Positions 1 to 33,959 of a stretch of DNA of 64,000 bases are shown piece after piece. Location of the stretch: NCBI GenBank assembly GCA_963810095.1, contig CAWEMM010000008.1, forward strand, positions 1-64,000, given 5' to 3'. The notes beneath the pieces were generated by a model, which saw only the letters and a program-made list of their open reading frames with translations, did not search any database and was not told where the DNA came from. The position numbers and the translations under genes are program-made. The stretch is from an uncultured Chloroflexia bacterium (GTDB lineage: Bacteria > Chloroflexota > Anaerolineae > CG2-30-64-16). Each line of letters opens with the position of its first letter. Within the stretch, counting starts at the first letter, position 1.

Positions 1-614
1 TCGGGGACGGAGCAAGAGGAACGCCAGCCCGGGGGTAGCCGTAGCCGCAGCGGGTTCCTGCGCAGCCGGTCCCGGGGTGGCGCTCGGCGTGCCCACCGGC
101 TGGGTGCGGCCGCCGGGTCGCTTGAAAAATCACCTCTGCGCTGTTCGACGTAGCAGCAAGCCTCATGCCGTCTACATCTGCCAGGATGAACGAGTCGACG
201 GCAACCAGCGCCGGACCACCGGCAATGGCGCGGAACTGCATCGAATAACGTGCCCGAGCCCGATACCGGTTCATGCGGGCTGATCGAGTCGCGGCGCAGT
301 TCACACCACCCCCGCAGCATTATCGAAGTTATTCTGCGCTACAAAGTCGTGGGCAACAAACGCGCCGGGAACGCGGCTTTGCCTTCGGCGGTGGGTAACT
401 AGCTGCAGCAGCGCCGGATCTACAGTAGGTGGACCTCGAAGGCATACAGGTTGTCGATGCTGTCAACAGAGGCCGTAAGCGTGAGTGTGTCTCTGCCCGG
501 CCGTACCTGAGCCGGACTGCCGGCCAACGGTTGCAGAACAGCTGCCGCGTCGGCATATTGCGGCGACAGCAGCGACAGACCGATAATCAGCAGGCCAGCA
601 AGGAAGATACGCAC
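1..614 (-). CDS. Secreted cohesin-domain protein with Pro/Thr/Ala linker (frameshifted, runs off the left edge)
   Basis: Signal peptide MRIFLAGLLIIGLSLL; cohesin-like LTASVDSIDNLYAFEVHL, PVSGSGTLF, FRAIAGGPALVAVDSFILADVDG pieced across frames; then TPSATPGPAAQEPAAATATP. Confidence 0.65.
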
Positions 615-623
615 GAGAAACCC

Positions 624-1436
624 CTATCGCGCCGACCTGCGCCGGACCCACCATCCGATGCCCCCAACGACCACCGCGCCCAGCCCGACAAGCGCGAGCC
701 GTGGCCGACGCACAGAGTGGTGGCAACCGCGCTCCCGGCAGTGCGGGGGTCGCAGAAGCGCCGGGCGCCACCTGGATCACAGGGGGAGCGGCGGTTGCGC
801 TGGAACAGTGGTCGCAGGGGCTCCGGTGGGGGCCGCCGTGGCAACCCCAACCGTAGCCGGCGCCGGGGCTTCGATAGCAGTGCTGGCATCCGCCGTCGCG
901 TTGTTCTCCGGTAACCGCCGCGATGGCCCGTCCTGTACGGTCCGCAAGTTCGTAAGAAGTGATCGTTACCGGCGACCGCTAACATCAGCCTTCGCCAGCA
1001 GCACGGCCGAAAACAAAACGCCGGTCCCGCTGACAGGTAAGGTAGGGCTGATCTGCGTGCCGGCGAACCAGACCGTGCCGGCCCGATTGTCTGCCACAGA
1101 ACGTACCACGAAGTCGGGCTTGAAGAAAAGAACCGACCTTGATCTGAACGTCCGGCGTACCCGGGTCGGCATCCACAACCTCAAGCACTGCGGGGTCGAA
1201 TTGCGCTCGCACGTCGGCTGCGTAGAGGCTGTTCACACTTTCCACGACGAAGTCGACGGTCACTGTCTGCCCCTTTGAGGCTCGTAATGACGCCAGGATC
1301 AAGGCCGGATCATGACCTCCCGCGAGTCCTGGGCGACGCCTGTTGTTGCGAAGAACGCAAGGGCAAGCAGCGCGAACGGTGCCGGCGCCTGATAGCATGC
1401 GGATAATTGACTTGAAAACACGTTTGGAATTTCGCA
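624..1436 (-). CDS. Cohesin-domain protein with Pro/Thr linker and C-terminal membrane anchor (frameshifted)
   Basis: GQTVTVDFVVESVNSLYAADVRAQFDPAVLEVVDAD, FFKPDFVVRSVADNRAGTVWFAGTQISPTLPVSGTGVLF; C-terminus LPPLCAS...LALVGLGAVVVGGIGWWVRRRSAR*; start approximate. Confidence 0.7.
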
Positions 1437-1538
1437 CGATTTGGGTTCCAAAATGGTGATGGAGCATGGCGGGCAGAGCATCCGTCGCCCGCCATGCTCG
1501 TAAGGCGCTATACGATCAGCGCTCGGGCATTCGGCCGC

Positions 1539-2020
1539 TTACCAGGCTTGCGGCGTCGCCTTGTCGTAGTTGCCGCCGGCGATCGCCAGGTCCTGGATGT
1601 TCGTCACGCCGTCCTTGTTGATGTCCGTGCTGCCGCCCGGTCCACCGCAGCCGGCCGGTAGGATCTGCCACCGAATGCACCGCCGATGCAGCCCAGGTCG
1701 GTCGAGTTCACCCTGCCGCTGTTGTCCGCATCGCCGCCCTTCAGCGTCGTCTTGTCAAGCGTCACGTTCCCCGCCACGGGTACCGCCGTTTTCTGGTTCC
1801 CCAGGTACAGGGAGTGCGACGCATCCACCGTGTAGTTGCTACCACCCGGCAGGTACTGCACGTTCGCTGTCCACGCACCGGTCGTCGCGTTGAAGGCCAC
1901 CGTGACCGGCGCAAACGTCGGGCTCGGGTCCGCGTTCGTCAGCTTCACCGATCCCGCATCCATCGGCGTCAGCCGCCCTTGCAGCGCTACAACACCGCTC
2001 ACCGTCGCATTCCCGCACAC
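1539..2020. repeat. ~480 bp direct repeat, copy 1 (X-dockerin coding module)
   Basis: Nearly identical to 3616-4092 by direct comparison. Confidence 0.9.
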
Positions 2021-3476
2021 TGTGAGGGGCAATGTCGTCGTGCGGATTAGCATCTTGAAGCCGTCGATGTCGCTAAGGATGGCTTCGGTGACGGTTACGT
2101 CGAACGAGCCCATGCCGGTGGCGGTCAGCTTAAAATGACCCGATCTTGCCCGATCCTGCGAGCGGCGCCGCCGGCGACACCTTCGAAGCTCCGAAAGCAC
2201 ACGTCCCCGAGCTGCAGACAGCGCCGTAGCCCGCTGGGACCGCCGCATTGTTCGTCGTGTCGAACCAGTTATTGTCGAACTTGGCTTCCGACGCCGTTGC
2301 CTTTGCCGAATCGAAGTCCACCTTCACCTGGTACCCGTATAGGTTTGTCACATCGTTCAGATCGAAGGTTCACGGTCGTGTTTCGCCGACGCAGAAGAGG
2401 CCATCCGCAGTTGCGAGGTCGACCGCCGCCGACGCCTCCACGAAGTCGTACGTCTTCAGTCCGACCGTCACCTTGTCGACCCAGCCGACCGTGCCCACGC
2501 CGGGGCTAACATTCGAGAGTCGCCCATGCCGAGGGTCAAGTAGACGCGAATGACCTTTGCGCCGGGGTTTCCTGCAGCCACATCGCTTAGCGGCATCCAA
2601 GGCCCGATCCCGTTTCCGCTAGGAACGTCCACTCTGCTGCCACTGGCCAGCAGCCGCTGATCGTGTTCCAACCCACCCCATACGGGGTCGGGATAAACTG
2701 GTACTGTTTCTCGTTGTCGAGCCTGATACGCGCCCAAACCGGATTCGTTCCCGACTGGTTCTGCACGTCGTAGGTGAGAGCCTGTGTGGCGAAGGTTGCG
2801 ACGTCGACGTTGTCGGCCATCAAGGCCAAGAGACCTTCATCTTCGTAGTTGCCGTCCGGATCCGGTGCCAAACCCGCCTTAATGATGCCGGGCCTCGTGA
2901 CCGTCATAGACCTGCGTGATGCCCGGGGACACGGGCGTGTAGCTGGCCGGACCATAATACCCGGCAAACACCCCGCCACCACCCTGAGCCGTGAAGCTCG
3001 GCTACAAGTTACTCACCTGCACAAGTTGTTCAACATCAAACCGCGTCCAGTTGAAGCGCTCATCACTTTCCGGCACCGAAGACCGACCGCACTTCAACGT
3101 ATTCACGCGGCGCAAGGCTTCGGGATGTTGTGCTGTTGTCCACGCAGAGCGACGGATACAAACCATCCGTGATGGAGGGATTCCAGTTGGCCATGGGGTT
3201 GCCGTTTGCATCAAGACGTCGCTGGGTCGTATCACCATCGGTCCGATACTCAAAATATTTTCCTCCATGCCCTAGGAGCCTGGTGCTGATGAACTGCAGG
3301 GTAATCTCGAACCGCCCCTACGGCCGCCTGATCGAACGGCCCAGCCTTTGGTTCGATTGACTACATGGGTGCTGGGTGTGGCCGGGTTCACATTGCCATT
3401 ACCGGATCCCGAACACACCGAGCACGAGACTGGCCATGACTATGGCCATTGCGATCCTTACAACGTACTTCTTCAT
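1539..3476 (-). CDS. Secreted protein: unknown N-terminal domain + cohesin + beta-sandwich (X) + dockerin-like C-terminus (multiple frameshifts)
   Basis: RBS AGGAG and signal peptide MKKYVVRIAMAIVMASLVLG; cohesin NLYGYQVKVDFDSAK...PLAGSGKIGSFKLTA...ILSDIDG; duplicated Ca-binding loops GDADNSGRVNSTDLGCIGGAF and DINKDGVTNIQDLAIAGGNYD. Confidence 0.75.
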
Positions 3477-3615
3477 TTCCCCAGATCTCCTTTGATTGGA
3501 AACTAGAAACTTTCGTGACCCGCCTGTGAAAGGGCTATTTGGAAAACAACGCAGTAGAACTGCGATCAGGGAGACGGCAACCGCCGCCCCCTGAGTAGCG
3601 TTACCTCGTTACTAA

Positions 3616-4092
3616 CTACCAGGCTTGCGGCGTCGCCTTGTCTGGTAGTTCCGCCGGCGATCGCCAGGTCCTGGATGTTCGTCACGCCGTCCTTGTTGAT
3701 GTCGGGCCGCCCGGTCCACCGCAGCCGGCCGGGGCGCCACCGAACGCACCACCGATGCAGCCCAGGTCGGTCGAGTTCACCCTGCCGCTGTTGTCCGCAT
3801 CGCCGCCCTTCAGCGTCGTCTTGTCAAGCGTCACGTTCCCCGCCACGGGTACCGCCGTTTTCTGGTTCCCCAGGTACAGGGAGTGCGACGCATCCACCGT
3901 GTAGTTGCTACCACCCGGCAGGTACTGCACGTTCGCTGTCCACGCACCGGTCGTCGCGTTGAAGGCCACTGTGACCGGCGCAAACGTCGGGCTCGGGTCC
4001 GTGTTCGTCAGCTTCACCGATCCCGGTCGATCGGCGCCTCAGCCGCCCTTGCAACGCTACAACACCGCTCACCGTCGCATTCCCGCACACGG
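3616..4092. repeat. ~480 bp direct repeat, copy 2 (X-dockerin coding module)
   Basis: Nearly identical to 1539-2020. Confidence 0.9.
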
Positions 4093-6277
4093 TCAGCGGG
4101 ATCGTGGTCGTGTGGTGCGCGAAGTTCAAGCCATTAATGTCCGTCAAGATGCTCTCACTGATCGTCACGTTCACCGTGCCCGGTGCGGCACCGGTGAGCT
4201 TGAACGAAGCAATCTTGCCCGATCCTGTCAGCGGCGTCGCCGGGTCAACCTTGGATGCGCCGAACGCAACACGTCCCAGCAACGCTGCAGTCGCTGTTGT
4301 AGCCCGTCGGGACGGCCGCGTCAACTTGTCGTTCGAACCAGTTGTTGTCGAAAGCCGCTTCCGATGCGGTGACCTTGGTCGAATCGAAGGCCACCTTGAT
4401 CTGGTAGCCGTACAGGTTCGCCACATCGTTCAGCTTCCATCGATGGTCGTGTTCTCGCCCACGCAGAAGAGGTCGTCGGTCATCTCCACGACGATGGTTG
4501 TGTTCGGGCTCAGCGTCGTGCCGCCGCAGCCATTGGTCACCCAGGGGCTGAAGTCGACGTTGTCGCTCACGGCCGGCGTCGCGCCGCCGAGTTCTGGGCC
4601 GCGTTGTAGGTCCAGTCCCGCCGTCCCACCAGTTCGCCTGAGCATGCACAGCCGTGGCGGTAACGTTCGCCACGCCGTAGTTCACGCCCGCGAGCAGTTC
4701 TTCTGGATGTTGACGGTGGCCGAGTTCGGGTAGCCGACGAAGACACCCACCGCGTCGTTGTACGTGTTGCGGTTCACGACGTTGCTGATCTTGTTGCCTT
4801 CGACCAGGGCGTTAAGGGTCGGGCCTTCGAGGCCGATCGCATGCGCCCACCAGCCGTCCAGATTCGAGATCTGGTTGTTCAGGACCTTCAGGTTTGACCG
4901 CCGGCCTTGTTGTTGACGATGATGCCGTAAGCGCCCTTGTTAACGTCCTTCACGCCGTCGATCACGTTGTCCTGGATCGTCACGTCGGTGCTCACGTCGG
5001 CGCTTACGTATCTAGCACGCCCACCGCGCTGACACTCTTCGGGCCGCCGTTGAGGTTGGTGAAGCGGTTGCCCGCGACGGTCACCTGGTCGGGGCCCTGG
5101 TAAACCAGGAAGGCGTGCACGTTCTCGGGGTAGGTCGAGCTGCCAACGTGTCTACCAGGTTGTTCACCAGGTTGATGTTGGTGTAGCTCGGCGTGGATTG
5201 TTGACTACGACCGCGTCGGCTGGCCCGGATTCGTCATGTAGAACCCGTCGACCGTGACGTTGCTGGCCAAGACGTTCATCACGCCGGTGACCGCGGAAGG
5301 TACGCCGCGGGATTGTCCGACTTTGTCAGGAAGTTGTCCCAGTAGACGTCGTAGTCCGCGCCGTAGTTGTAGGCGTTGAGGATGACGTTGCCTAGCGTCT
5401 TCGTGTTCGGATCGGCAAAGTTGAGCACCGAGACGCCGTCGACGAAATACTGGAATGCCAGTCCCAACAGTCAGGACTAGGGAAACGCTATGCCACTTCC
5501 CATAGTCCCCGCCTGCGGCCATCTTAGCGGGCATCCAGCCTGCCGTTCCGAGATAGTCGAACACATAGAAACCAGGCGTGGTACCGCCCCGCCAGCCGAT
5601 GATTGGATACGCCGAGACAGACGTGCCGTCAAAGCCCGTTGCCCACAAAGCCGCATTGCGATCCGCGCCATTCCACGAGCTATCGACCCACATGTCGATA
5701 GACATTGCTTGCGTAGCGCCAGTCAGATTCGTATCCAGCTTACGGCCCTGGGAATTGAGGAACCCGTTCGACTGGACGTCTGCCGCGGGGGTACGCCGTG
5801 CTTCAGCACGGACTGACCATTGAAGGTTGTGGCCTCGAACACGGCCGGCGCATAGCGATCGGTGTACCACACGCCAGGCGCAGCCGGGCCGAGGTTGACG
5901 GCGGTGGAGAAGTTGCCGTTGCCTGCGAAGGACTTCAAGGTAAGGCCCTTGCCCACTGTCACGTTCTCGGCGTAGCTGCCCGGGTAGACCAGCACGGTCT
6001 TCCCCTCGGCAGCCGCGTTGACACCGCCCTGGATGGTGTCGAAGGCGGTCACATTCCAGCCAGGGGTGGCGCTGGTGTAGTTGCGGTCGACGAAAATGTC
6101 GGCGGTCGCCAGGGACGATTCGGAGGCAGCCCCGGACATTGCGGCCGCCGGCGTGGCGCCGGACTGCATGTCCGGGCTGACCGGGCCGCCGTTCGCCGCA
6201 AGGGTCGCGGAGGCCGGCAGAAGGAAGGCGATCACGAGCAAGACGACCGCAAGTCGGGACAGGGTTCTGCGATTCAT
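3616..6277 (-). CDS. Secreted protein: pectin-lyase-like parallel beta-helix with inserted beta-sandwich + cohesin + X + dockerin (multiple frameshifts)
   Basis: Signal peptide MNRRTLSRLAVVLLVIAFLLP; beta-helix cap FDTIQGGVNAAAEGKTVLVYPGSYAENVTVGKGLTLKS; AQANWWD...NVDFSPW helix end; cohesin NLYGYQIKVAFDSTKV; same dockerin as the downstream gene. Confidence 0.75.
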
Positions 6278-6358
6278 GGTTTACTCCTCGAAAAGGTGGA
6301 ACTGATAGGGTGAATGGAAACAATGGCTTGTTCGGATCTCGCTGTGCTTATTCTCCTT

Positions 6359-7390
6359 TCAGCCGTGCCTCGAGATTGCCCGCCGCGTTGGGTGACGGCT
6401 GCGCGGTGTTCTCTCCAGGATGTGCAGACTGCGGTCGCGCCCTCGAACCGGGCCAGCCGCCGCTTCGCCAGGGCGAAAAGTGCGACGATAAGCAGCGCGC
6501 CGGCGCCGAGCAAAGGTAATGGCGCCCGAGCCTCCGGCCTCCCCACGAAGCGGGTCAGCGTCAGCGCGTTCGGGCCTGTGCCGGCGCCCCGTAGGGACCG
6601 TACCTCGTCCGCTGCCCGGAGAGGGTGACAGCTTCGAGCCAGTAAGCGCCGGCGGTGCGGGCCGGCTGGATACGATAGGTGTAGCGGCTTCCGGCCGCGG
6701 CGCCGGGTGCGGTCGAGGGTACGAAGGCGATCCAGGCCGGCTCGCTCGCTGCGGACCGGCCGGCATAGACGTTGAAGCCGGCGTTGTCTGCTTCGGAACC
6801 GGTCTCCCACGAGAGAAGTGCCCCGTCGGCCGCCACCGTGCAGCCCGCACGTCGAGCAGGTCGACCGCCAGCGGCGTCTGGAACTCGACCGTGCAAGACT
6901 GGGTCGTGTTGGGGCAGCTTCACGCCGTCGATATCGACCAGGTCGTGGAGCGTGAAGGCGATGGTGAACGTGCCCACGGCTAACGGGTGAAACGTGACGC
7001 GGAACAGCGGGCCCGAGCCGCTCACCGGCTGCGAGGGGCGACCTGGGTGGCCGCATAGCGGAAAGACCCCGCCGTGTTATCCGCGCCGTCCCGTGCGACG
7101 AAATCAGGGGCCAGTGAAAAGTCGACCAGCGGCTGGATCTGCACGCCGTTCTTCGACGTGTTCGCATCCACTACCTGCCCGACCGCGGGGTCAAAGGTGG
7201 CAGCGATGTCGACGCCGTAGAGCGCCGGTCACATCGTTCACGCGTATGTCGATGCTCAAGTCGGCGTCGTTTCCCCGTGGGCCGCCACCGGGTCGCACGT
7301 GACGACGGGGCCGGCAGCCAGGGCCGCAGGTGGGACGGCGGCGAACAGGACAACAACGAGCAACAGGCTACTGATCAACCAGGGGCGCAT
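6359..7390 (-). CDS. Cohesin + FN3-like (WETGSEADNAGFNVY) domain protein with C-terminal sorting/TM tail (frameshifted; 3' end approximate)
   Basis: Signal peptide MRPWLISSLLLVVVLFAAVPPAALA; cohesin SGSGPLFRVTFHPLAVGTFTIAFTLHDLVDIDG; tail TGPNALTLTRFVGRPEARAPLPLLGAGALLIVALFALAKRR. Confidence 0.65.
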
Positions 7391-7711
7391 AACTGCTCCG
7401 AGCGGCTATCGGGAAAACAGGCGGGCACGTGCAAGCGCAAGGCGCACGGGGGCCTGTGTCAGGACTCGAGAGAACAAGATGGCGTTTTGTCGGCCTTCTT
7501 CAAACGGAGTCTGTCCGGATGCTCGGCGACCGCTAGATTTGCCCGCCTGTGGCAATGTCGTCGATTAGGCGTGCCCGGCCCCTCATCACCCCTAGCGGGC
7601 ACAAGGCACGTTGGCAATTCTACCAAGGATATCCCGCAAGAGATAGTGTCAAAAGTCCCTATCTTTAAGCAGATTATCCACGTGATTCGGTACTTTAGTA
7701 CGGTACCCCCG

Positions 7712-8377
7712 TCACCTTCTGGGTTTGACGATCCCCCGCTGCACGGCTTGCAGCACGGCCTCCGTCCGGTTCTGCACGCCCAGCTTGTGGTAAATGCTGG
7801 TCAGGAGGTTCTTCACGGTCTGTTCGGAGAGGTATAGCTTGTCGGCAATCTGCCGGTTCGACAGGCCGGCCGCGAGGTGCTCGAGCACGTCGAGCTCACG
7901 GGGCGCGAGCGGCGGGCTCATGGGCAGGCTGCGCCCGGCTTCCAGCGCGAGCCGGCGGTACTCGTCGAGCAGCCGCGACCCGACGTGCGGCTCAATCGCG
8001 ACCCCGCCCGAGGCCACCGCCCGGATCCCTTCCACCAGCACGGCCGCCCGCTCGTCCTTCAGCATGTACCCGCGCACCCCGGCCAGCACCGCGCCTTCCA
8101 CCAACTCGGGATCCTGGTACATGCTGAGGGCAATCACGCGTGCCTCAGGTCGCCGGCGGATGATCTCCCGTGTCGCCTCCACCCCGTCGCGGCCGGGCAT
8201 GTGCAGATCCATCAGGATGACGTCGGGGCGCAGCTGCTCGGCCAATTCGATGCCCATCTCGGCATCGCCCGCTTCGCCCACCACCGCCAACCCCTCCTGG
8301 CGCTCGAGCAGCGCGCGCAGCCCGTCGCGGAACAACGAGTGGTCATCGACAATCAGGACCGTGATTCTCTCAATCAC
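7712..8377 (-). CDS. NarL/FixJ family response regulator (REC + LuxR HTH)
   Basis: VLIVDDH, DVILMDLHMP, GYMLK; LAPRELDVLEHLAAGLSNRQIADKLYLSEQTVKN; GTG start overlaps the kinase stop. Confidence 0.95.
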   Translation of the reverse strand: MIERITVLIVDDHSLFRDGLRALLERQEGLAVVGEAGDAEMGIELAEQLRPDVILMDLHMPGRDGVEATREIIRRRPEARVIALSMYQDPELVEGAVLAGVRGYMLKDERAAVLVEGIRAVASGGVAIEPHVGSRLLDEYRRLALEAGRSLPMSPPLAPRELDVLEHLAAGLSNRQIADKLYLSEQTVKNLLTSIYHKLGVQNRTEAVLQAVQRGIVKPRR

Positions 8378-10049
8378 CAGGCTGTCCTCCGCCAAGTGGC
8401 AGCACTGCCGTTACCGTCGTCCCCGATCCGATTTTCGAATCGATCCGCAACAGGCCGCCCAGTTCCTCCATCCGCGATCGCATGCTGACGATCCCGAAGT
8501 GACCGGCTCTGGCTCCTGCAACCTCTAAGTCAAAACCGTTTCCATTGTCTTGAACGCTCAATTCGATTGTTTTCTGGCACGACGCGTTCAAATATACACA
8601 AACCCGCGTCGCGTTCGCATGCTTGCGCACATTGGTCAGCGCTTCCTGGGCCAGCCGCACCAGGGCCGTGTGCTGCCCAGCCGAGAGGCGCCGCTCCTCG
8701 TCGCCCACGCAGACGATTTCCACCCGCTGCCCCACCTGCTCCTCGAATTGAGTCGCCAGCAGCCGCAGCGCATCGAGTAGGCGGGTGCTGCCCGAAGCCG
8801 AGTCGTGCAGCGAGGCAATCGTCCCTCGGGTCTCGCGGATGGCCCGCTGGAGCCCGTCCGCGAGCGTGTCCAGCTCCGCCGCCAGTTGGGGCGCACCCGA
8901 CTGCGCGAGGTCGTGACACAGCTCCGCCTTGAGCAGGAGCGAGGCGAGATTCTGCGCCAGGCCGTCATGCAGCTCGCTTGCCAGCCGCGAACGCTCGCGA
9001 TGGATCGTCAGCGCCTGCTCGCGCATCCGGCCGTGCACCTTCTCCAGGATGGCACCCCCCGCCTGGGCCAGCAGCTCGACCGTCTCGATGTCGTCCCGCG
9101 TGAACTGGCGCACGGCAGGATCGTCGCCAACCGCCAGTACCGCCGCCGGAACGCCCTGAACAAACAGGGGCACCGCAATCAGGGCGGTGCGCAAGCCCGC
9201 GTTCGAAGCCGCACCCTCGGGAAACACGTACTCTGGCAGATGCAGCGTCTGCCCCGACTGCATCACCCTGGCCGACAGGCCTTTGCCGGGAGGCAGCCGA
9301 TAGCCGATCATGGGCGCCGGCGCGCCGTCGCGATAGGCTACGGTCACGACGACTTCGCCGGTGACTTTGTCGATCACGCTCAGGCTCCCGCCGCGGGCGC
9401 GGAGCAGACGAATCGTACGCTGCACGAGTTCGTCGAGCAATTGATCGCTGTCCATCACCCGGGTGAGCGATACCGCCAGTTCGTAGAGCGCAGACCACCG
9501 CTCGTTGCGCTCGCGGAGTCGCTCTTCCACCCCCTGGCGCAGGCGGAGGTGCGCCGTGGCGAGGCCGATCTCGAGGGCGGCCGCGGCCAGCCCCTCCTGG
9601 TGCCACGGGGTGCGCGGGGTATCAGGCAAGCCGAACAGGCACACGATCCCGATGTCATCGTCTCGCACGGCCAGGGCGGCCGCGCCCAGCACCTGCAAGA
9701 CGCTGCCCTGCGAAACCACTTCCGCCCATCCCACGGCAAGCGCGTGGCGATCCGGGTCGACCGAGGGGCAGAAGCAGGGCAAGGTTGCCAGGGTGAGGCC
9801 AGGGGAGACCGGGGGCACGTTCCCGCTGCTCGCGACGCGGGCCAGGTCGCGGCTTTCGGGATCACAGAGACCGATCAGGACGCCGTCGGCGCGCAGGTGA
9901 ACCCGCAACGTCTCGAGCACGGCCGCGAGGAAGGCATCCAGGTCCATACTGGCGGCGCGCGCCGAAATCAACGCCCGGTGCAGCGCCAAAATGTCCTGAA
10001 GCGGTATGATCGTTGCATCCGTCGAGGTGAGACCGAGAGATTGCGACAC
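8370..10049 (-). CDS. GAF-domain sensor histidine kinase (HisKA_3)
   Basis: Two GAF-like regions; ERSRLASELHDGLAQ, QEALTNVRKHA, DNGNGF, GHFGIVSMRSR, GSGTTV. Confidence 0.93.
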   Translation of the reverse strand: MSQSLGLTSTDATIIPLQDILALHRALISARAASMDLDAFLAAVLETLRVHLRADGVLIGLCDPESRDLARVASSGNVPPVSPGLTLATLPCFCPSVDPDRHALAVGWAEVVSQGSVLQVLGAAALAVRDDDIGIVCLFGLPDTPRTPWHQEGLAAAALEIGLATAHLRLRQGVEERLRERNERWSALYELAVSLTRVMDSDQLLDELVQRTIRLLRARGGSLSVIDKVTGEVVVTVAYRDGAPAPMIGYRLPPGKGLSARVMQSGQTLHLPEYVFPEGAASNAGLRTALIAVPLFVQGVPAAVLAVGDDPAVRQFTRDDIETVELLAQAGGAILEKVHGRMREQALTIHRERSRLASELHDGLAQNLASLLLKAELCHDLAQSGAPQLAAELDTLADGLQRAIRETRGTIASLHDSASGSTRLLDALRLLATQFEEQVGQRVEIVCVGDEERRLSAGQHTALVRLAQEALTNVRKHANATRVCVYLNASCQKTIELSVQDNGNGFDLEVAGARAGHFGIVSMRSRMEELGGLLRIDSKIGSGTTVTAVLPLGGGQPGD

Positions 10050-10202
10050 CGTTGACGCCCCATATTAAAAAGAGTCTTCTGCGGGCTTTGCCAACGGGAA
10101 TTATACTCGGTCGCCCCCGTCACAGCAATTCACGACAACGTTCAAAAATCGCTGCACGCGTAAATGTCCTGATGGCGCCGGCGCGGCTCCCAAGGCCGCG
10201 GC

Positions 10203-11571
10203 CTACGGCATGGAGAACTCCGCAAACAGGCGCCCGATGACCTTCACGCCCTCGACAAAATCCGAGATGCGCATGCTTTCGTTCGGTGCGTGCGCGTTGC
10301 TACGGGGCCAGCCCACCCCCAGCGAAACCGCGGGGACGCCATACGCCTGGCACAGCTGGTACATCGGACCGCTGCCCGGAGAGGTCGGCTGCACGACCGG
10401 CGGTTGCCCGTGCACTCGGGCGAGCGCACGGATGGCAGCCTGCACGATGGGTGCGGTCGGATCCGTGCGGGCGGGCATCAGACCCTCCTCCTCTTCGAGC
10501 ACCTCCACGTCCGCAAAGCCCCGGTTGTCGAGGTGGGTGCGCACGAGGTCGAGCACAAGCGTGGGCGTCAGGTTCGGCACGAGGCGAATATCCAGCTTCG
10601 CGAAGGCCTGGGCGGGGATCACCGTCTTCGAACCCGGGCCGGTGTACCCGCCCCAGATGCCGTTGATCGTGCAGGTCGGCTCGAACATCAGGCGTCGCAG
10701 TGCGGCTTGGCCGGTCAAGCCGCCGAGGAAACCGCTGAAGCCCAGCTGGCTCTGGACCGCGGCCTCTTCGAAAGGGGATGGTGCGCAGCGCGTCTTCTTC
10801 GGCCGGGCTTGCAGGCAGCACGTTCTCCCACAAGCCGTCGATGGTCACATGACCGTCGGGCCGGCGCAGCGTGCCGAGCGCGTCGACGAGCCGCCAGGCC
10901 GCATTCGGGTACAACCCACCGTTGCCCGAATGGGCGTCCGCGTTCATCACTCGCACCCGCAGCAGCAGCGACTCGACCCCTTTCAGCCCCAGCATGATTA
11001 CCGGACGCTCGGCTTCATCTTTATAGCCGGCCTCCCACACGCACCCATCAAGCGTGCGCAGCAGGGCCGCATGGTCGGCCGCGAACTCGGCGAGGTGGGG
11101 GCTGCCGACCTCCTCCTCGCCTTCGAAGATGCAGGCCAGGCGCAGCGGAAGCTCGCCGATGGTCGCGCGGTACGCCTGCACCGCAGCGAGGCGAGCGACC
11201 ACGTTGCTCTTGTTATCGGCAACGCCGCGCGCATACAGGATGCCGTCGACAATCGCCGAGTCAAACGGCGGCACGTGCCACTCGTCCAGGGGATCCGCCG
11301 GCTGCACGTCGTAGTGGTTGTAAATCATCAGGCCGCGTGCGCCCGAGCCCCCTTGCGCCAGAACTACGGGTGGGCCGCCGCGGGTCGGCACGAGTTCGAC
11401 CTTCAGCCCGACGCCGGCCGCGAGCTGGGCGACGTACGCCGCGGCCTGGTCCATCGCCGCCCCACCTACCGCCGCGATGCTCGGGATGCGGCACAGCGCC
11501 TGCAGCTGCGCAATAAACTCGCCGGCATGCTCTTCCACATACGCATCAAAATGCGCAAAGTCGCCCTTCAT
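10203..11571 (-). CDS. M20/M25/M40 family metallopeptidase (one frameshift near 10770)
   Basis: YNHYDVQP, LYARGVADNK, EGEEEVGS, DAHSG; C-half PTCTINGIWGGYTGPGSKTVIP, NAHAPNE. Confidence 0.92.
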
Positions 11572-11765
11572 GGTTGTTGCCACCTCTCCCGAATCAAATC
11601 CCGGTCGAAAACACATGCCGGCCCGGCGCCCCGGCGCTCGCCAGGTGGGCGATCCCACTCCGGAACCGGTCTCGTTTCGCATGGATACTACCCGTGATGC
11701 TGCAGCCGTGTCAACCGCCGGCCCCGCCACGGGCGCGTTCCAGCGTCGGGGCAAGGTCAGCGGAG

Positions 11766-11858
11766 CATCCTGAGCGGATGGGCGACCCGCAGGTCGCACG
11801 CAGTCGAAGGATGCGGAGCGGCTTCGCGCTGCGAGGGCAGCATCCTCCGCTCAGGATC
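11766..11858. repeat. REP-like palindromic element (ATCCTGAGCGGA...GAAGGATG family)
   Basis: catcctgagcgga...tccgctcaggat inverted ends; related copy at 49144-49330. Confidence 0.6.
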
Positions 11859-11905
11859 CTTTCGCACCCAAACTGAAACGCACCCCCCGCCACAGCCGGA
11901 CGCGA

Positions 11906-11953
11906 CGGCGCGGAGGTGGGCCCCTGGTCCATGGAGCCGCCCACCTCCGCGCC
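11906..11953 (-). terminator. GC-rich hairpin downstream of the subtilase
   Basis: ggcgcggaggtgggc...gcccacctccgcgcc. Confidence 0.55.
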
Positions 11954-11982
11954 TGCCGCAGAATCTGCCGCTGGGGGGTTGC

Positions 11983-13185
11983 CTATTGGATAAACAGCTC
12001 GTACAGCAGCCGGTTCGGCGAGTTCGAACCCGCGCCGCCGACCTTGCCGGACGTCGAGTTGTTCACCAGCGCATCGCGCACCTGCTGGGGCGTCGAGCCG
12101 GCGTGGTTCTGCAGGTACAGCGCCGCGGCGCCCGCCACGTGCGGCGTGGCCATCGAGGTCCCGCTGATCGTGTTGGTGGCCGTGTTGCTCGTGTACCATG
12201 AGGAGGTGATCGACGAGCCCGGCGCGAAGATGTCGAGGCACGAGCCGTAGTTCGAGTAGGACGCTCGGGCATCCGAGGAGGTCGTCGCGCCGACCGTGAT
12301 CGCGCTGCCTACGCGGGCAGGCGAGTAGTTGCAGGCATTGGCATTGCTGTTGCCCGCGGCGATGGCGAACGTCACGCCCTTGGCGATGGCGTTGCTGACC
12401 GCGCTGTCGAGCGACGACGAGATGCCGCCGCCCAGGCTCATGTTCGCGACGGCCGGCTTCCTGGCGTTGTTGGCCACCCAGTTGACCCCTGCGATGACGC
12501 CGGAGGTCGAACCGGAGCCGCTGCAGTTCAGCACGCGCACGGCCACGAGGCTGACACCCTTCGCGATCCCATAGGTGCTGCCGCCGATCGTGCCCGCGAC
12601 GTGGGTGCCGTGGCCGTTGCAGTCATCCGCCGAGCCGCCGTCGACCGCATCGTACCCCGACGTCGCCCGGCCCCCGAACTGGTTGTGGCTGAACCGAATA
12701 CCGGTGTCGATCACGTAGGCCGTCACGCCGGCGCCGGTCACGTTATAGGTGTAGCTGTTGCTCAGCGGCAGGCTGCGCTGGTCGACCCGGTCCAGCCCCC
12801 AGGTCGCCGGCGACTGTGTCGCGTCGAGCTCCACCGACTGATCGGCCTCGACGTATTCGACGTTCGGATTGCGGCGCACGATCTCCAACGCCCGGTCGGG
12901 CAGCGTTACGGCAAAGCCGTTCAGCGCGGCATCATACCGGTAGAGGATGTTGATATTGGGTGAAGCAGCGATGAGTTCGGCGATGAGCGGCTCGAGCTGC
13001 GCCGCAACGTCGGGCTTGAGGACGACGATGTACTGGCCGGGGATCGCCCGCGGCGAGTCGGCGCCCAGCAGCGGCGCGGGCGTGAGCGGCGCGGCCGTGA
13101 GTGGCGCGGCAGCGACGGGCAGTGCCGCCACTAGAACGGCGGCGAGGACTGACACCAGTGCGAGGATTCGGACCTTGCGTGACAT
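11983..13185 (-). CDS. Secreted S8 serine peptidase, aqualysin/proteinase K type, with I9 propeptide
   Basis: Catalytic motifs YVIDTG, NGHGTHVAG, SGTSMATPHVAG; signal peptide; ATWGLDRVDQR. Confidence 0.97.
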   Translation of the reverse strand: MSRKVRILALVSVLAAVLVAALPVAAAPLTAAPLTPAPLLGADSPRAIPGQYIVVLKPDVAAQLEPLIAELIAASPNINILYRYDAALNGFAVTLPDRALEIVRRNPNVEYVEADQSVELDATQSPATWGLDRVDQRSLPLSNSYTYNVTGAGVTAYVIDTGIRFSHNQFGGRATSGYDAVDGGSADDCNGHGTHVAGTIGGSTYGIAKGVSLVAVRVLNCSGSGSTSGVIAGVNWVANNARKPAVANMSLGGGISSSLDSAVSNAIAKGVTFAIAAGNSNANACNYSPARVGSAITVGATTSSDARASYSNYGSCLDIFAPGSSITSSWYTSNTATNTISGTSMATPHVAGAAALYLQNHAGSTPQQVRDALVNNSTSGKVGGAGSNSPNRLLYELFIQ

Positions 13186-13359
13186 GGGTGCCTCCTGGGG
13201 CTAGACAGAATGGATAGGTGGACTGGAGGAACACGGAGCTTTTGCGGCCGTCGATGAGGTGCGTGGACGGCGAAAAGCGTGTGCTAGACAAAACGGATAA
13301 CCGGACGAAAAGATACCTTGCCGGAGAAATTGATAACACGCGTTGGGTCGCAGACGCGA

Positions 13360-22100: not shown

Positions 22101-22113
22101 AATTTCTGCGAAG

Positions 22114-22188
22114 GGGTGGCCAGTGGGGCTTGAACCCGCAACCTTCTGGGCCACAACCAGATGCTCTGCCTATTGAGCTATGGCCACC
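22114..22188 (-). tRNA. tRNA-His (GTG)
   Basis: GGTGGCCATAGCTCAATAGGCAGAGC-ATCTGG TTGTGGC CCAGA-...GGTTCAAGCC; extra G-1. Confidence 0.95.
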
Positions 22189-22255
22189 ACGTATTCGTAG
22201 GCTGGAATCGGGTGTCGCCCCAACGTCTGCGGCGGCGTCCTGATCCTGCCCCCGA

Positions 22256-22326
22256 CTCGGGGGCAGGGATTCGAACCCCGATACGCAGCTCCAAAGGCTG
22301 CTGTCCTGCCGTTGAACGACCCCCGA
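22256..22326 (-). tRNA. tRNA-Gln (TTG)
   Basis: TCGGGGGTCGTTCAACGGCAGGAC-GCAGC CTTTGGA GCTGC-...GGTTCGAATCC. Confidence 0.95.
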
Positions 22327-22343
22327 ATGCCCGACCTATCAGG

Positions 22344-22416
22344 TGCCGAGGCCCAGACTTGAACTGGGGACACCGCAATTTTCAGTCGCGTGCTCTACCA
22401 ACTGAGCTACCTCGGC
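22344..22416 (-). tRNA. tRNA-Phe (GAA)
   Basis: GCCGAGGTAGCTCAGTTGGTAGAGC-CGCGA CTGAAAA TTGCG-...AGTTCAAGTCT. Confidence 0.95.
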
Positions 22417-22612
22417 GTTTAGACCCCGGTCGTGCGTTTTGGTGTCCTGCTGTCAGACACACGCCCACACCCAAACACAAGACTGCGGACCCTTGTAAAG
22501 AAAACGGCTGATGGCAGAAGGCCGATCATACGACCCCGGCATCTCGGATGATGCCATCATCTTTGATGATGCGCAATCATCTCGCCGATCTGCTATCAGC
22601 CATCGAACTCAG

Positions 22613-22684
22613 AGCGGGTGACGAGATTCGAACTCGTGACCTTCTCCTTGGCAAGGAGACGTACTACCACTGTACTACACCCGC
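22613..22684 (-). tRNA. tRNA-Gly (GCC)
   Basis: GCGGGTGTAGTACAGTGGTAGTAC-TCTCC TTGCCAA GGAGA-...GTTCGAATC. Confidence 0.95.
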
Positions 22685-22781
22685 AGGCGCTCTAGGTTTG
22701 TTATTACGGAGGGCATTATATCGAAATCCCGCCGGCTGTCAAAAATCGAGCGGCTTGTTGTCGTGTGGTCAGCCGCTGCAG

Positions 22782-22853
22782 TGGACCCGGCCGGATTCGA
22801 ACCGGCGATCTTCTCCGTGCAAGGGAGACGCCTTCCCGCTAGGCCACGGGCCC
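22782..22853 (-). tRNA. tRNA-Ala (TGC)
   Basis: GGGCCCG acceptor with G3:U70; TCTCC CTTGCAC GGAGA; GGTTCGAATCC. Confidence 0.93.
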
Positions 22854-33877: not shown

Positions 33878-33959
33878 TGCCGACGGGGGGATTTGAACCC
33901 CCACGCCTTGTGGGCAGCAGATCCTAAGTCTGCAGCGTCTGCCATTCCGCCACGTCGGC
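33878..33959 (-). tRNA. tRNA-Leu (TAG)
   Basis: GCCGACGTGGCGGAATGGCAGACGC-GCAGA CTTAGGA TCTGC, long variable arm, GGTTCAAATCC. Confidence 0.95.

Follow-up and report, generated by a model that had tools for sequence, protein, structure and literature searches.

Cohesin-dockerin assembly is, to our knowledge, known almost solely from the cellulosomes of Bacillota, and the locus described here raises the question of what such modules do in a Chloroflexota bacterium, in a gene set that an earlier sequence-only reading described as a cellulosome-style surface scaffold without cellulases. The stretch of DNA analysed (the window) comprises 64,000 nucleotides of an uncultured Chloroflexia bacterium (GCA_963810095.1; 6.13-Mb genome, 16 contigs, estimated completeness 88.5%) and opens contig C8 (CAWEMM010000008.1), of which it covers the first 64 kb, such that base 1 of the window is base 1 of the contig, i.e., a contig end. 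The locus lies at positions 1–7390, and we consider it probable that it is a non-cellulosomal cohesin-dockerin operon for cell-surface protein display in a Chloroflexota (Anaerolineae-type) bacterium.

The locus consists of five co-oriented genes, all on the minus strand and all split by frameshifts according to the list of open reading frames (ORFs) and stop-to-stop translation, in which the coding sense switches frame every few hundred bases. In transcription order the genes are E, C, B, A2, and A1, and each encodes a protein with one cohesin only, as judged by hidden Markov model (HMM) search. Signal peptides and membrane helices in the following map were called by eye, without a predictor.

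Gene E, second anchoring socket, 6359–7390, minus strand: signal peptide (start 7390) and anchor-class cohesin at ~6903–7225.
Gene E, C-terminal part, minus strand: ~85-residue domain without a family at ~6600–6850, then a hydrophobic helix and KRR at 6457–6519 in a shifted frame.
Gene C, 3616–6277, minus strand: signal peptide (start 6277), head at ~4500–6190, cassette-class cohesin at ~4064–4500, X module and dockerin at 3617–4026.
Gene B, 1539–3476, minus strand: signal peptide (start 3476), head at ~2440–3400, cassette-class cohesin at ~1994–2440.
Gene B, C-terminal part, minus strand: X module at ~1760–1993, dockerin with two Ca-loop motifs at 1542–~1760, stop at 1539–1541.
Gene A2, anchoring socket, 624–~1481, minus strand: hydrophobic signal-like stretch and anchor-class cohesin at ~987–1293.
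Gene A2, C-terminal part, minus strand: Pro/Thr/Ala-rich linker at ~700–965, hydrophobic helix and RRR tail at 627–698, stop at 624–626.
Gene A1, 1–614, minus strand: GTG start at 614, signal-like N-terminus, weak anchor-class cohesin, and the onset of a Pro/Thr/Ala-rich linker.
Repeat copy 1, 1540–2021, minus strand: the X-dockerin coding part of gene B.
Repeat copy 2, 3617–4091, minus strand: the X-dockerin coding part of gene C.

Signal-like hydrophobic N-termini open at the starts 7390, 6277, 3476, and 614. The earlier proposal of five adjacent co-oriented genes, each with a signal peptide and a cohesin, stands with respect to strand and to all five cohesins but not with respect to the A2 start that it placed at 1436, which is no start codon; frameshifts blur this start, which lies somewhere within ~1398–1481, and likewise leave the true stop of gene E uncertain. 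The same reading had one gene truncated by the edge of the window, and indeed A1 lacks its 3′ end because it runs into base 1 of contig C8; the remaining part contains at least three frame changes and is matched by tblastn with a 350-residue anchor protein from contig C11 of the same genome at 420–310 and 280–98. It had also suggested that the ORF track conceals these genes, which agrees with the presence of only fragments in that list and with at least 15 shifts along a codon-usage Viterbi path. Identity between the two repeat copies reaches 96.4% (455 of 472 aligned bases, five indel events), whereas the cohesin-coding parts of B and C just upstream of them share 70.8% DNA identity.

Because the window genes are broken, intact relatives were sought. 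A fragment of gene B matched 11 of 41 related genomes and ten longer database proteins, and led to an intact 556-residue open frame in a genome of the same family (G022; 51% identity). Three HMMs built from intact relatives (cassette cohesin, X-dockerin, and anchor cohesin) were run on both strands of positions 1–7700, and all of their matches fall on the minus strand at the gene positions given by the sequence-only reading. Anchor-class cohesins were detected in gene E (7025–7228, 75 bits), in gene A2 (988–1515, 68 bits; 969–1232, 53 bits) and, weakly, in gene A1 (304–462, 19.6 bits, E 4e-5). Cassette cohesins were detected in gene C (4248–4811, 56 bits; 3911–4429, 79 bits) and gene B (2133–2369, 96 bits; 1607–2323, 43 bits), as were X-dockerins in both (gene C: 3685–4038, 117 bits and 3569–3823, 26 bits; gene B: 127 bits, with a further piece at 1542–1754, 52 bits). 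Searches by tblastn with the intact relatives recover the same layout, with frame changes between the pieces. B and C are hence variable heads followed by cohesin, a middle module, and dockerin, and A2 and E each pair a cohesin with a C-terminal helix and basic tail, as had been proposed for all four.

General family models detect these domains at the margin of their cut-offs. Pfam Cohesin (PF00963) exceeds its cut-off of 24.1 bits within the window in the A2 fragment at 988–1515 only (31 bits), whereas the custom HMMs match all five genes; intact paralogues on C11 score 25.5, 31.4, and 31.3 bits, and the model is found at E≤0.001 in 30 of 58 relatives that carry the cassette. No window fragment matches Dockerin_1 (PF00404) at E≤0.01, and the paralogues in the same genome score 22.0–22.1 bits against a cut-off of 22.9. 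A scan of 13 proteins and fragments with NCBIfam gave no match over cut-off. Read directly, however, the dockerins of B and C each contain two 12-residue loops of the form D-x-[DN]-x-[DNS]-G...D, each followed by a helix motif, and the Asp/Asn columns of these loops are invariant in an alignment of 50 relatives. The same alignment shows near-invariant Cys pairs both within the cohesin and between the helices of the dockerin, which would fit an extracytoplasmic protein.

The C-terminal 306 residues of the intact protein from G022 were used as a cassette query against a database of 1.84 billion sequences and retrieved 995 cluster representatives at E≤1e-3, 267 at E≤1e-10, and 112 at E≤1e-30. In nearly all of the full-length matches listed, which range from ~300 to 1560 residues, the cassette forms the C-terminal end. 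A profile of 50 relatives identifies the cassette cohesin with type II cohesins (3l8q_A, E 4.5e-14) and the second half with an X module joined to a type II dockerin (2b59_B of CipA, 1.4e-8; also 3kcp_A, 4u3s_B, 4wi0_B, and 5k39_B). With 59 database proteins at E≤1e-3, the anchor cohesins constitute a separate family, whose profile also leads to type II cohesins (3l8q_A, 4.7e-12) and whose consensus consists of a signal peptide, a cohesin, a Pro/Thr-rich linker, and a hydrophobic helix with RRR.

The fold of the cassette was modeled on the intact G022 relative rather than on the broken window genes. AlphaFold2 (AF2) predicts it with a mean local confidence (pLDDT) of 95.6 and a predicted template modeling score (pTM) of 0.87, with helices at model residues 253–261 and 288–296, and the best Foldseek matches are the CohI9-X-DocII fragment of CipA (4fl4_C and 3kcp_A, E ~1.5e-15). 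In structural alignments with VIA-align, the cohesin part (residues 2–144) superposes on 6kgd_A (Z 16.9, 138 aligned, root mean square deviation [rmsd] 2.5) and on many further cohesins with Z of 14–16; the X-dockerin part (145–305) superposes on 4wi0_B (Z 14.9, 138 aligned, rmsd 2.1); and the whole cassette aligns with 3kcp_A over 269 residues at an rmsd of 9.5 (Z 17.5). The profile and fold matches together identify the "beta-sandwich" between cohesin and dockerin as an X module, and the module order of the cassette as modeled is that of the C-terminal end of a primary scaffoldin. A lack of any cohesin or dockerin fold would have counted against the original proposal; the intact relative's cassette yields both, by profile and by fold.

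The arrangement of these genes recurs across the phylum. A pattern scan derived from a 10-row alignment and run on one genome per prokaryote species returned 52 loci, 19 of which span most of the cassette. All 19 are titled Chloroflexota (Anaerolineae/Anaerolineales, Caldilineaceae, Chloroflexia, Thermoflexales, Ktedonobacterales, Promineifilum, and Ardenticatenia), and most of the rest match the dockerin only and belong to Poribacteria. Anchor-class cohesin genes, one to four in number, come after the cassette gene or genes on the same strand in 17 of the 19, and they end in a hydrophobic helix with a basic tail or in a Y-L-P-L-I-like tail. The first of the two exceptions is a locus cut short, whose anchor gene is visible in a longer stretch, and the second consists of one 2055-residue protein that is built differently. 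The synteny survey thus supports a conserved operon. In the window, as read from sequence, two anchor-class genes come after the cassette genes, which fits the usual order, and E would be an additional socket on the upstream side. The closed 2.6-Mb genome G116, of the same class, contains an intact cluster of the same parts: two large X-dockerin proteins (1587 and 1412 residues), a headless cohesin-X-dockerin protein of 334 residues, two cohesin proteins with C-terminal helices, and one cohesin protein with a short C-terminal tail. In another locus (L028, 7041–8162) an anchor-class cohesin is joined directly to an X-dockerin. Because the cassette profile finds matches at E≤1e-10 in only 15 of the 301 genomes sampled from the phylum, the system is patchy in its distribution.

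In a phylogeny of 64 cohesin domains taken from these 19 loci, all 26 cassette cohesins fall on one side of a single branch, apart from the anchor cohesins (26/26, support 100/99), and the anchors divide into recurrent sub-clades that track gene position: a first-anchor sub-clade (15 rows, support 99/97), a second-anchor sub-clade with helix (8 rows, 100/100), and a mostly tail-bearing sub-clade (5 rows, four with tail and one with helix; 99/90). An AF2 model of a tail-type anchor cohesin from a 9-row alignment has a pLDDT of 76.7, with a cohesin core above 90 and tail residues 241–250 of low confidence.

Two other regions of the same genome carry related genes. The end of contig C11 contains a second and larger cohesin-dockerin cluster (C11:344950–365400, with the intact anchor genes in 352500–365400; L014, L015), in which two giant head-cohesin-X-dockerin genes, both frameshifted, accompany five genes for anchor-class cohesins. 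Three of the latter are intact and encode a 350-residue protein with a membrane helix, a 382-residue protein with an SdrD_B-like domain and a tail, and a 215-residue protein with a tail-like ending that departs from the motif pattern described below. A 2041-residue protein that joins an M12B metalloprotease to an X-dockerin is encoded ~1.4 kb from the last anchor gene of this cluster. We considered whether the end of C11 adjoins the start of C8 and found no evidence for such a join: the last 480 bases of C11 are not coding-like on the minus strand. C8:1–7500 has no DNA similarity to any other contig, C11 included, and its only match is the internal repeat. A third region (C6:141242–167090; L016, L017) contains more distant matches, namely a 1109-residue protein (Cohesin, 57.6 bits), a 2084-residue protein (Dockerin_1, 31.9 bits) whose dockerin is not matched by the X-dockerin HMM, and a 232-residue weakly cohesin-like protein (below the Pfam cut-off) with a tail-like ending; a LuxR-type regulator, recognized by eye, lies alongside.

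The flanks of 18 related loci share no consistent common neighbor. In the window, the gene immediately upstream of E, on its strand, encodes a NarL/LuxR-type response regulator (7712–8395); that of a GAF-HisKA_3 histidine kinase, likewise on this strand (8370–10049), overlaps it at its end. Families of response regulators or histidine kinases occur in the flanks of 5 of the 18 loci (L028, L029, L041, L042, and L044), and the pair beside gene E may possibly regulate the cluster.

Type II systems would lead one to expect that the X-dockerin binds a cohesin attached to the cell. In seven of eight within-locus paralogue pairs the X-dockerin shows higher conservation than the cassette cohesin, and this conservation, together with the corresponding difference between the repeats and the cohesin-coding parts in the window, fits a single shared docking partner. 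One pair, the anchor cohesin and X-dockerin of G022, was co-folded with our own alignments for both partners and three controls. It scored 0.48 (runs of 0.48, 0.50, and 0.47) against 0.01 for the best control; at least 96% of contacts are shared between runs, and the pLDDT of the partners is at least 89. The mark applied here is reached by 58 of 80 solved complexes and by 2 of 110 mismatched pairs, although at scores of 0.60 or less it is reached by only 7 of the 80 solved complexes and by both of the passing mismatches. The pass may moreover reflect memory of the model because type II cohesin-X-dockerin complexes have already been solved. The co-fold thus weakly supports binding of the X-dockerin to the anchor cohesin, as proposed by the sequence-only reading.

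We hypothesize that A2 and E (and probably A1) would be exported and tethered to the cytoplasmic membrane by their C-terminal helix and basic tail, each presenting one type II-like cohesin as a socket that a Pro/Thr-rich linker or an extra domain would hold off the membrane. B and C would be secreted, with their differing heads each mounted on a single rigid cassette in which cohesin and X module precede a Ca-binding dockerin. The X-dockerin would act as a plug that docks, presumably in a Ca-dependent manner, on the anchor cohesin and thereby displays the heads on the cell. The cassette cohesin would constitute a second socket that may receive a further X-dockerin protein, in the role of an adaptor.

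The heads of the cassette proteins are diverse. Pfam matches at E≤0.001 in 58 full-length cassette proteins include beta-helix families (Beta_helix, DUF1565, NosD) in 12, beta-propeller repeats (FG-GAP, RCC1, PD40, DUF5122, Rax2/Reg_prop) in 7, and GH130/GH32-like heads in 4; a few more carry Ig, PKD, cadherin, or LTD domains, many heads have no match, and a few relatives (P0011, P0016, and P0020) carry two to three cohesins. No cellulase family or carbohydrate-binding module (CBM) is present in any of the 58 by our reading of the listed matches, and the phrase "without cellulases" is hence apt for the relatives examined. The cargo of the 2041-residue X-dockerin protein from C11 is its M12B metalloprotease head. 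Gene C contains at least 11 frame changes, and its head shares an N-cap and a C-cap with the beta-helix relatives P0003 and P0010 and is thus of the parallel beta-helix type (tblastn: P0003 49–83 at 6037–5933; P0010 412–541 at 4694–4269), and on our own reading only it may contain an inserted jelly-roll-like stretch; two of its fragments, searched by phmmer against PDB sequences, gave no match and two matches at E ~0.8, respectively. The head of gene B matches no Pfam or NCBIfam family, and among 201 genomes of the class it was found in its own genome only (200 others searched); its best ESM Atlas score of 0.85 is a lead only. It is nevertheless no orphan because a word-index search returned two longer relatives, P0048 and P0218, and over 101 residues it has 51% identity to the N-terminal part of P0048, which is also a cassette protein.

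Several other accounts of the assembled product deserve consideration. The sequence-only reading favored a head-to-tail polymer, in which the X-dockerin of one subunit plugs the cassette cohesin of the next to build a filament, sheath, or adhesin layer from the membrane anchors. Every cassette does hold a socket and a plug in one unit that is predicted to be rigid, the headless 334-residue protein of G116 and the anchor cohesin-X-dockerin fusion of L028 resemble adaptor scaffoldins such that stacking is architecturally possible, and relatives with two to three cohesins exist; yet cassette cohesins form a separate clade and may therefore differ in specificity from the anchor cohesins, and X-dockerin cargo without a cassette-class cohesin (the 2041-residue protein of C11 and the 1587- and 1412-residue proteins of G116) indicates that polymerization is not general, so that we regard a polymer as doubtful. 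We hold a related and broader proposal to be similarly improbable, namely that the operon builds a hierarchical, possibly self-extending protein layer in which two conserved cell-bound socket classes nucleate chains of cassettes, each receiving the next; if true, one class would be fixed by a membrane helix and the other often by the so far undescribed Y-L-P-L-I-like tail, and beta-helix, propeller, and protease heads would be arrayed as a modular coat or sheath. Pairing could at the other extreme be purely intramolecular, with the dockerin seated on its own cohesin or the modules forming a structural stalk and no assembly between proteins. The prediction of all three modules as one rigid body and a domain arrangement unlike that of CipA are compatible with this idea, which we judge highly improbable, as it leaves unexplained both the separate anchor-cohesin genes that follow the cassette genes in 17 loci and the cargo that has an X-dockerin and no cassette cohesin, and the co-fold with the anchor cohesin, itself a slight indication, lies well over its controls.

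The heads and the condition of the genes suggest two further accounts. A true polysaccharide-degrading, cellulosome-like complex would make the beta-helix and GH130/GH32-like heads carbohydrate-active enzymes for plant or microbial glycans, and the frequency of these two head types, a Pectinesterase match in one beta-helix relative (26.3 bits, below the cut-off of 27), a G116 head that matches a pectate-lyase-like family, and the beta-helix type of the gene C head all point in this direction. The lack of cellulase families and CBMs among the relatives, the many heads of binding-type propeller, cadherin/Ig, or PKD character, the metalloprotease cargo in the same genome, the absence of a multi-cohesin protein from the window, and a gene B head outside known families make it very unlikely. 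It is also conceivable that the frameshifts are real, that the locus has decayed into five pseudogenes, and that the system works only in relatives and in the paralogous C11 cluster. Shifts were counted by the Viterbi path, the frame plot of GC content at third codon positions (GC3) being too noisy, and the density is indeed striking: the 15 or more shifts lie within 1–7500, whereas the next 5.8 kb (7500–13300) give two, of which one is a gene junction and one a true frameshift near 10773 that splits an M20-family peptidase gene (10203–11799), and the start of C8 has the highest density of 26 contig ends measured (2.92 per kb, against a mean of 0.54 per kb in 28 interior windows across the genome). 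The M20 frameshift shows, however, that indels also occur outside the five-gene locus, and other contig ends peak as well (C2 end 2.46, C14 end 2.44, and C11 end 1.79 per kb). The sequence past each shift stays close to the intact relatives and to the paralogous X-dockerin copy, and the stops seen are caused by shifts only. Because shifts are present genome-wide and peak at several contig ends, and because similarity persists past them, the frameshifts are probably assembly errors, in the pattern of an indel-rich consensus at poorly covered ends of an incomplete assembly, and decay of the locus seems to us unlikely.

Display by a non-cellulosomal operon, which we continue to favor, also faces evidence on the other side. 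All five genes are broken, and this copy is dead if the shifts are real. The Pfam models are marginal: apart from the A2 fragment, the other 32 of 33 minus-strand fragments in the window match no Pfam family at E≤0.01, and Dockerin_1, found at E≤0.001 in 25 of the 58 relatives, reaches its cut-off in only 9. The case for binding is one co-fold, which hints at the pairing, and each locus has three cohesin clades (cassette, anchor-1, and anchor-2) for one kind of dockerin, such that the X-dockerin could instead bind the cassette cohesin or the second anchor. The surface location is read from signal-like and membrane-helix sequences judged by eye, and the beta-helix heads could be polysaccharide lyases.

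Comparison with characterized systems places the locus close to the cell-attachment machinery of cellulosomes. The C-terminal CohI9-X-DocII portion of CipA from Clostridium thermocellum (3kcp, 4fl4, 2b59) has the same three modules in the same order and C-terminal position, is likewise secreted, and likewise relies on a separate gene for the cell-bound cohesin. CipA's partners are anchored by SLH domains, whereas the anchors of the locus have a C-terminal membrane helix and, in those scanned, no SLH match. CipA further differs in its nine cohesins, against one cohesin, no CBM, and non-cellulase heads in the locus; in its type I cohesins, the cassette cohesin being nearest to type II by sequence profile; in its domain packing, as reflected in the high rmsd over the whole cassette; in the conserved Cys pairs of the locus cohesin and dockerin linker, which are unlike CipA; and in its host, a member of the Bacillota rather than the Chloroflexota. 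The adaptor scaffoldins of Acetivibrio cellulolyticus (ScaA/ScaB; 3l8q, 4u3s, 4wi0) supply the best profile matches for both cohesin classes and a close fold match for the X-dockerin, and in both systems a cohesin and an X-dockerin within one protein link cargo to anchor. Unlike the A. cellulolyticus adaptors, the adaptor of the locus usually has a head of its own and a single cohesin, and we know of no dockerin-borne glycoside hydrolases that load onto it. The cohesin fold outside cellulosomes is exemplified by the Archaeoglobus fulgidus cohesin 2xdh (Z 15.9 against the cassette model) and by modules of Clostridium perfringens glycoside hydrolases (2w1n, 2jh2, 2o4e), which are isolated modules or belong to toxin-enzyme complexes and lack a tri-modular cassette or membrane-anchored sockets within one operon; a 2009 survey by Peer and colleagues reportedly found non-cellulosomal cohesin and dockerin modules to be widespread. 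The locus resembles the anchoring end of a cellulosome yet is not one by the usual features: as to dockerin-borne cellulases or plant-cell-wall glycoside hydrolases, the relatives offer only the four GH130/GH32-like heads; as to a multi-cohesin scaffoldin with CBM, each window protein has its one cohesin and the 58 relatives have no CBM; and as to SLH or sortase anchoring, Pfam scans of the anchors gave no SLH and inspection by eye no LPXTG-type signal.

The nearest counterparts in the literature are predicted non-SLH anchoring scaffoldins of Bacillota, with a single Coh2 and, at the C-terminus, a transmembrane helix, and "scaffoldin-containing," seemingly non-cellulolytic Bacillota with cohesin-dockerin kits (PMC11557425). 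In the portions of that paper available to us, these anchors are like those of the locus in pairing one cohesin with a C-terminal membrane helix as presumed cell anchor; they are Bacillota systems, are not described there as a conserved cassette operon, and have unclear partners, whereas the anchors of the locus type regularly follow the plug genes. An account of five Anaerolineae genomes and strain UNI-1 states, in the part consulted, that no cohesin or dockerin was identifiable (PMC4877987), and the presence of such systems in Anaerolineae is on that evidence not common knowledge. By term count, neither "cohesin" nor "dockerin" occurs in the accessible text of an activated-sludge secretome paper (PMC11495043). 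Full-text literature searches met no description of a Chloroflexota cohesin-dockerin operon among the papers listed. An operon of this kind would mean that the end-piece of a scaffoldin serves anew, as a portable cassette, for dozens of unrelated heads other than cellulases in several Chloroflexota classes, which would widen the range known for type II cohesin-dockerin pairs and their likely age, provide a testable model for surface dressing in poorly understood and often filamentous bacteria, and supply new orthogonal plug-and-socket pairs for protein engineering.

Two recurrent features of the related proteins were observed alongside. Many large secreted-looking proteins, including cohesin-only ones, end in a short C-terminal tail composed of a hydrophobic residue, Y/F/W, L/M, P, and two aliphatic residues; it usually ends with R or a few residues before the stop, often has a Pro/Thr-rich linker ahead, and is not followed by a membrane helix. 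Of the 30,365 six-frame ORFs in this genome that are 100 residues or longer, 30 carry the motif within their last 12 residues, against ~2.7 expected from its internal density. Examples are C11:354152 and C6:141242, and further cases occur at L013:6682–7434, L024:10690–11259, L024:16387–17520, L035, L041, and L044. Four of the proteins scanned with NCBIfam bear the tail, and none of the scanned proteins gave a match over cut-off. The tail may be an undescribed sorting or attachment tag of Chloroflexota. The second feature is the ~85-residue domain seen in gene E, which recurs between a cohesin or other head and the C-terminal helix or tail (window 6600–6850, L015:506–1273, L016:1243–2166, and L024:16387–17520). 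Its motif is L-x-W-E-T, G-F-x-x-x-R, Y-T/W-x-x-D, Y-x-Y-x-L (in gene E, L-x-W-E-T ... G-F-x-V-Y); it matched no family in Pfam and NCBIfam scans, and a fibronectin type III-like (Fn3-like) fold is our guess.

Elsewhere in the window, an intact secreted subtilase of 400 residues (Peptidase_S8 with an I9 inhibitor propeptide) is encoded at 11983–13185 on the same strand, ~4.6 kb upstream of the cluster. Five ordinary tRNA genes (His, Gln, Phe, Gly, and Ala) lie on the minus strand at 22113–22853, and two more tRNAs are located at 33878 and 53589.

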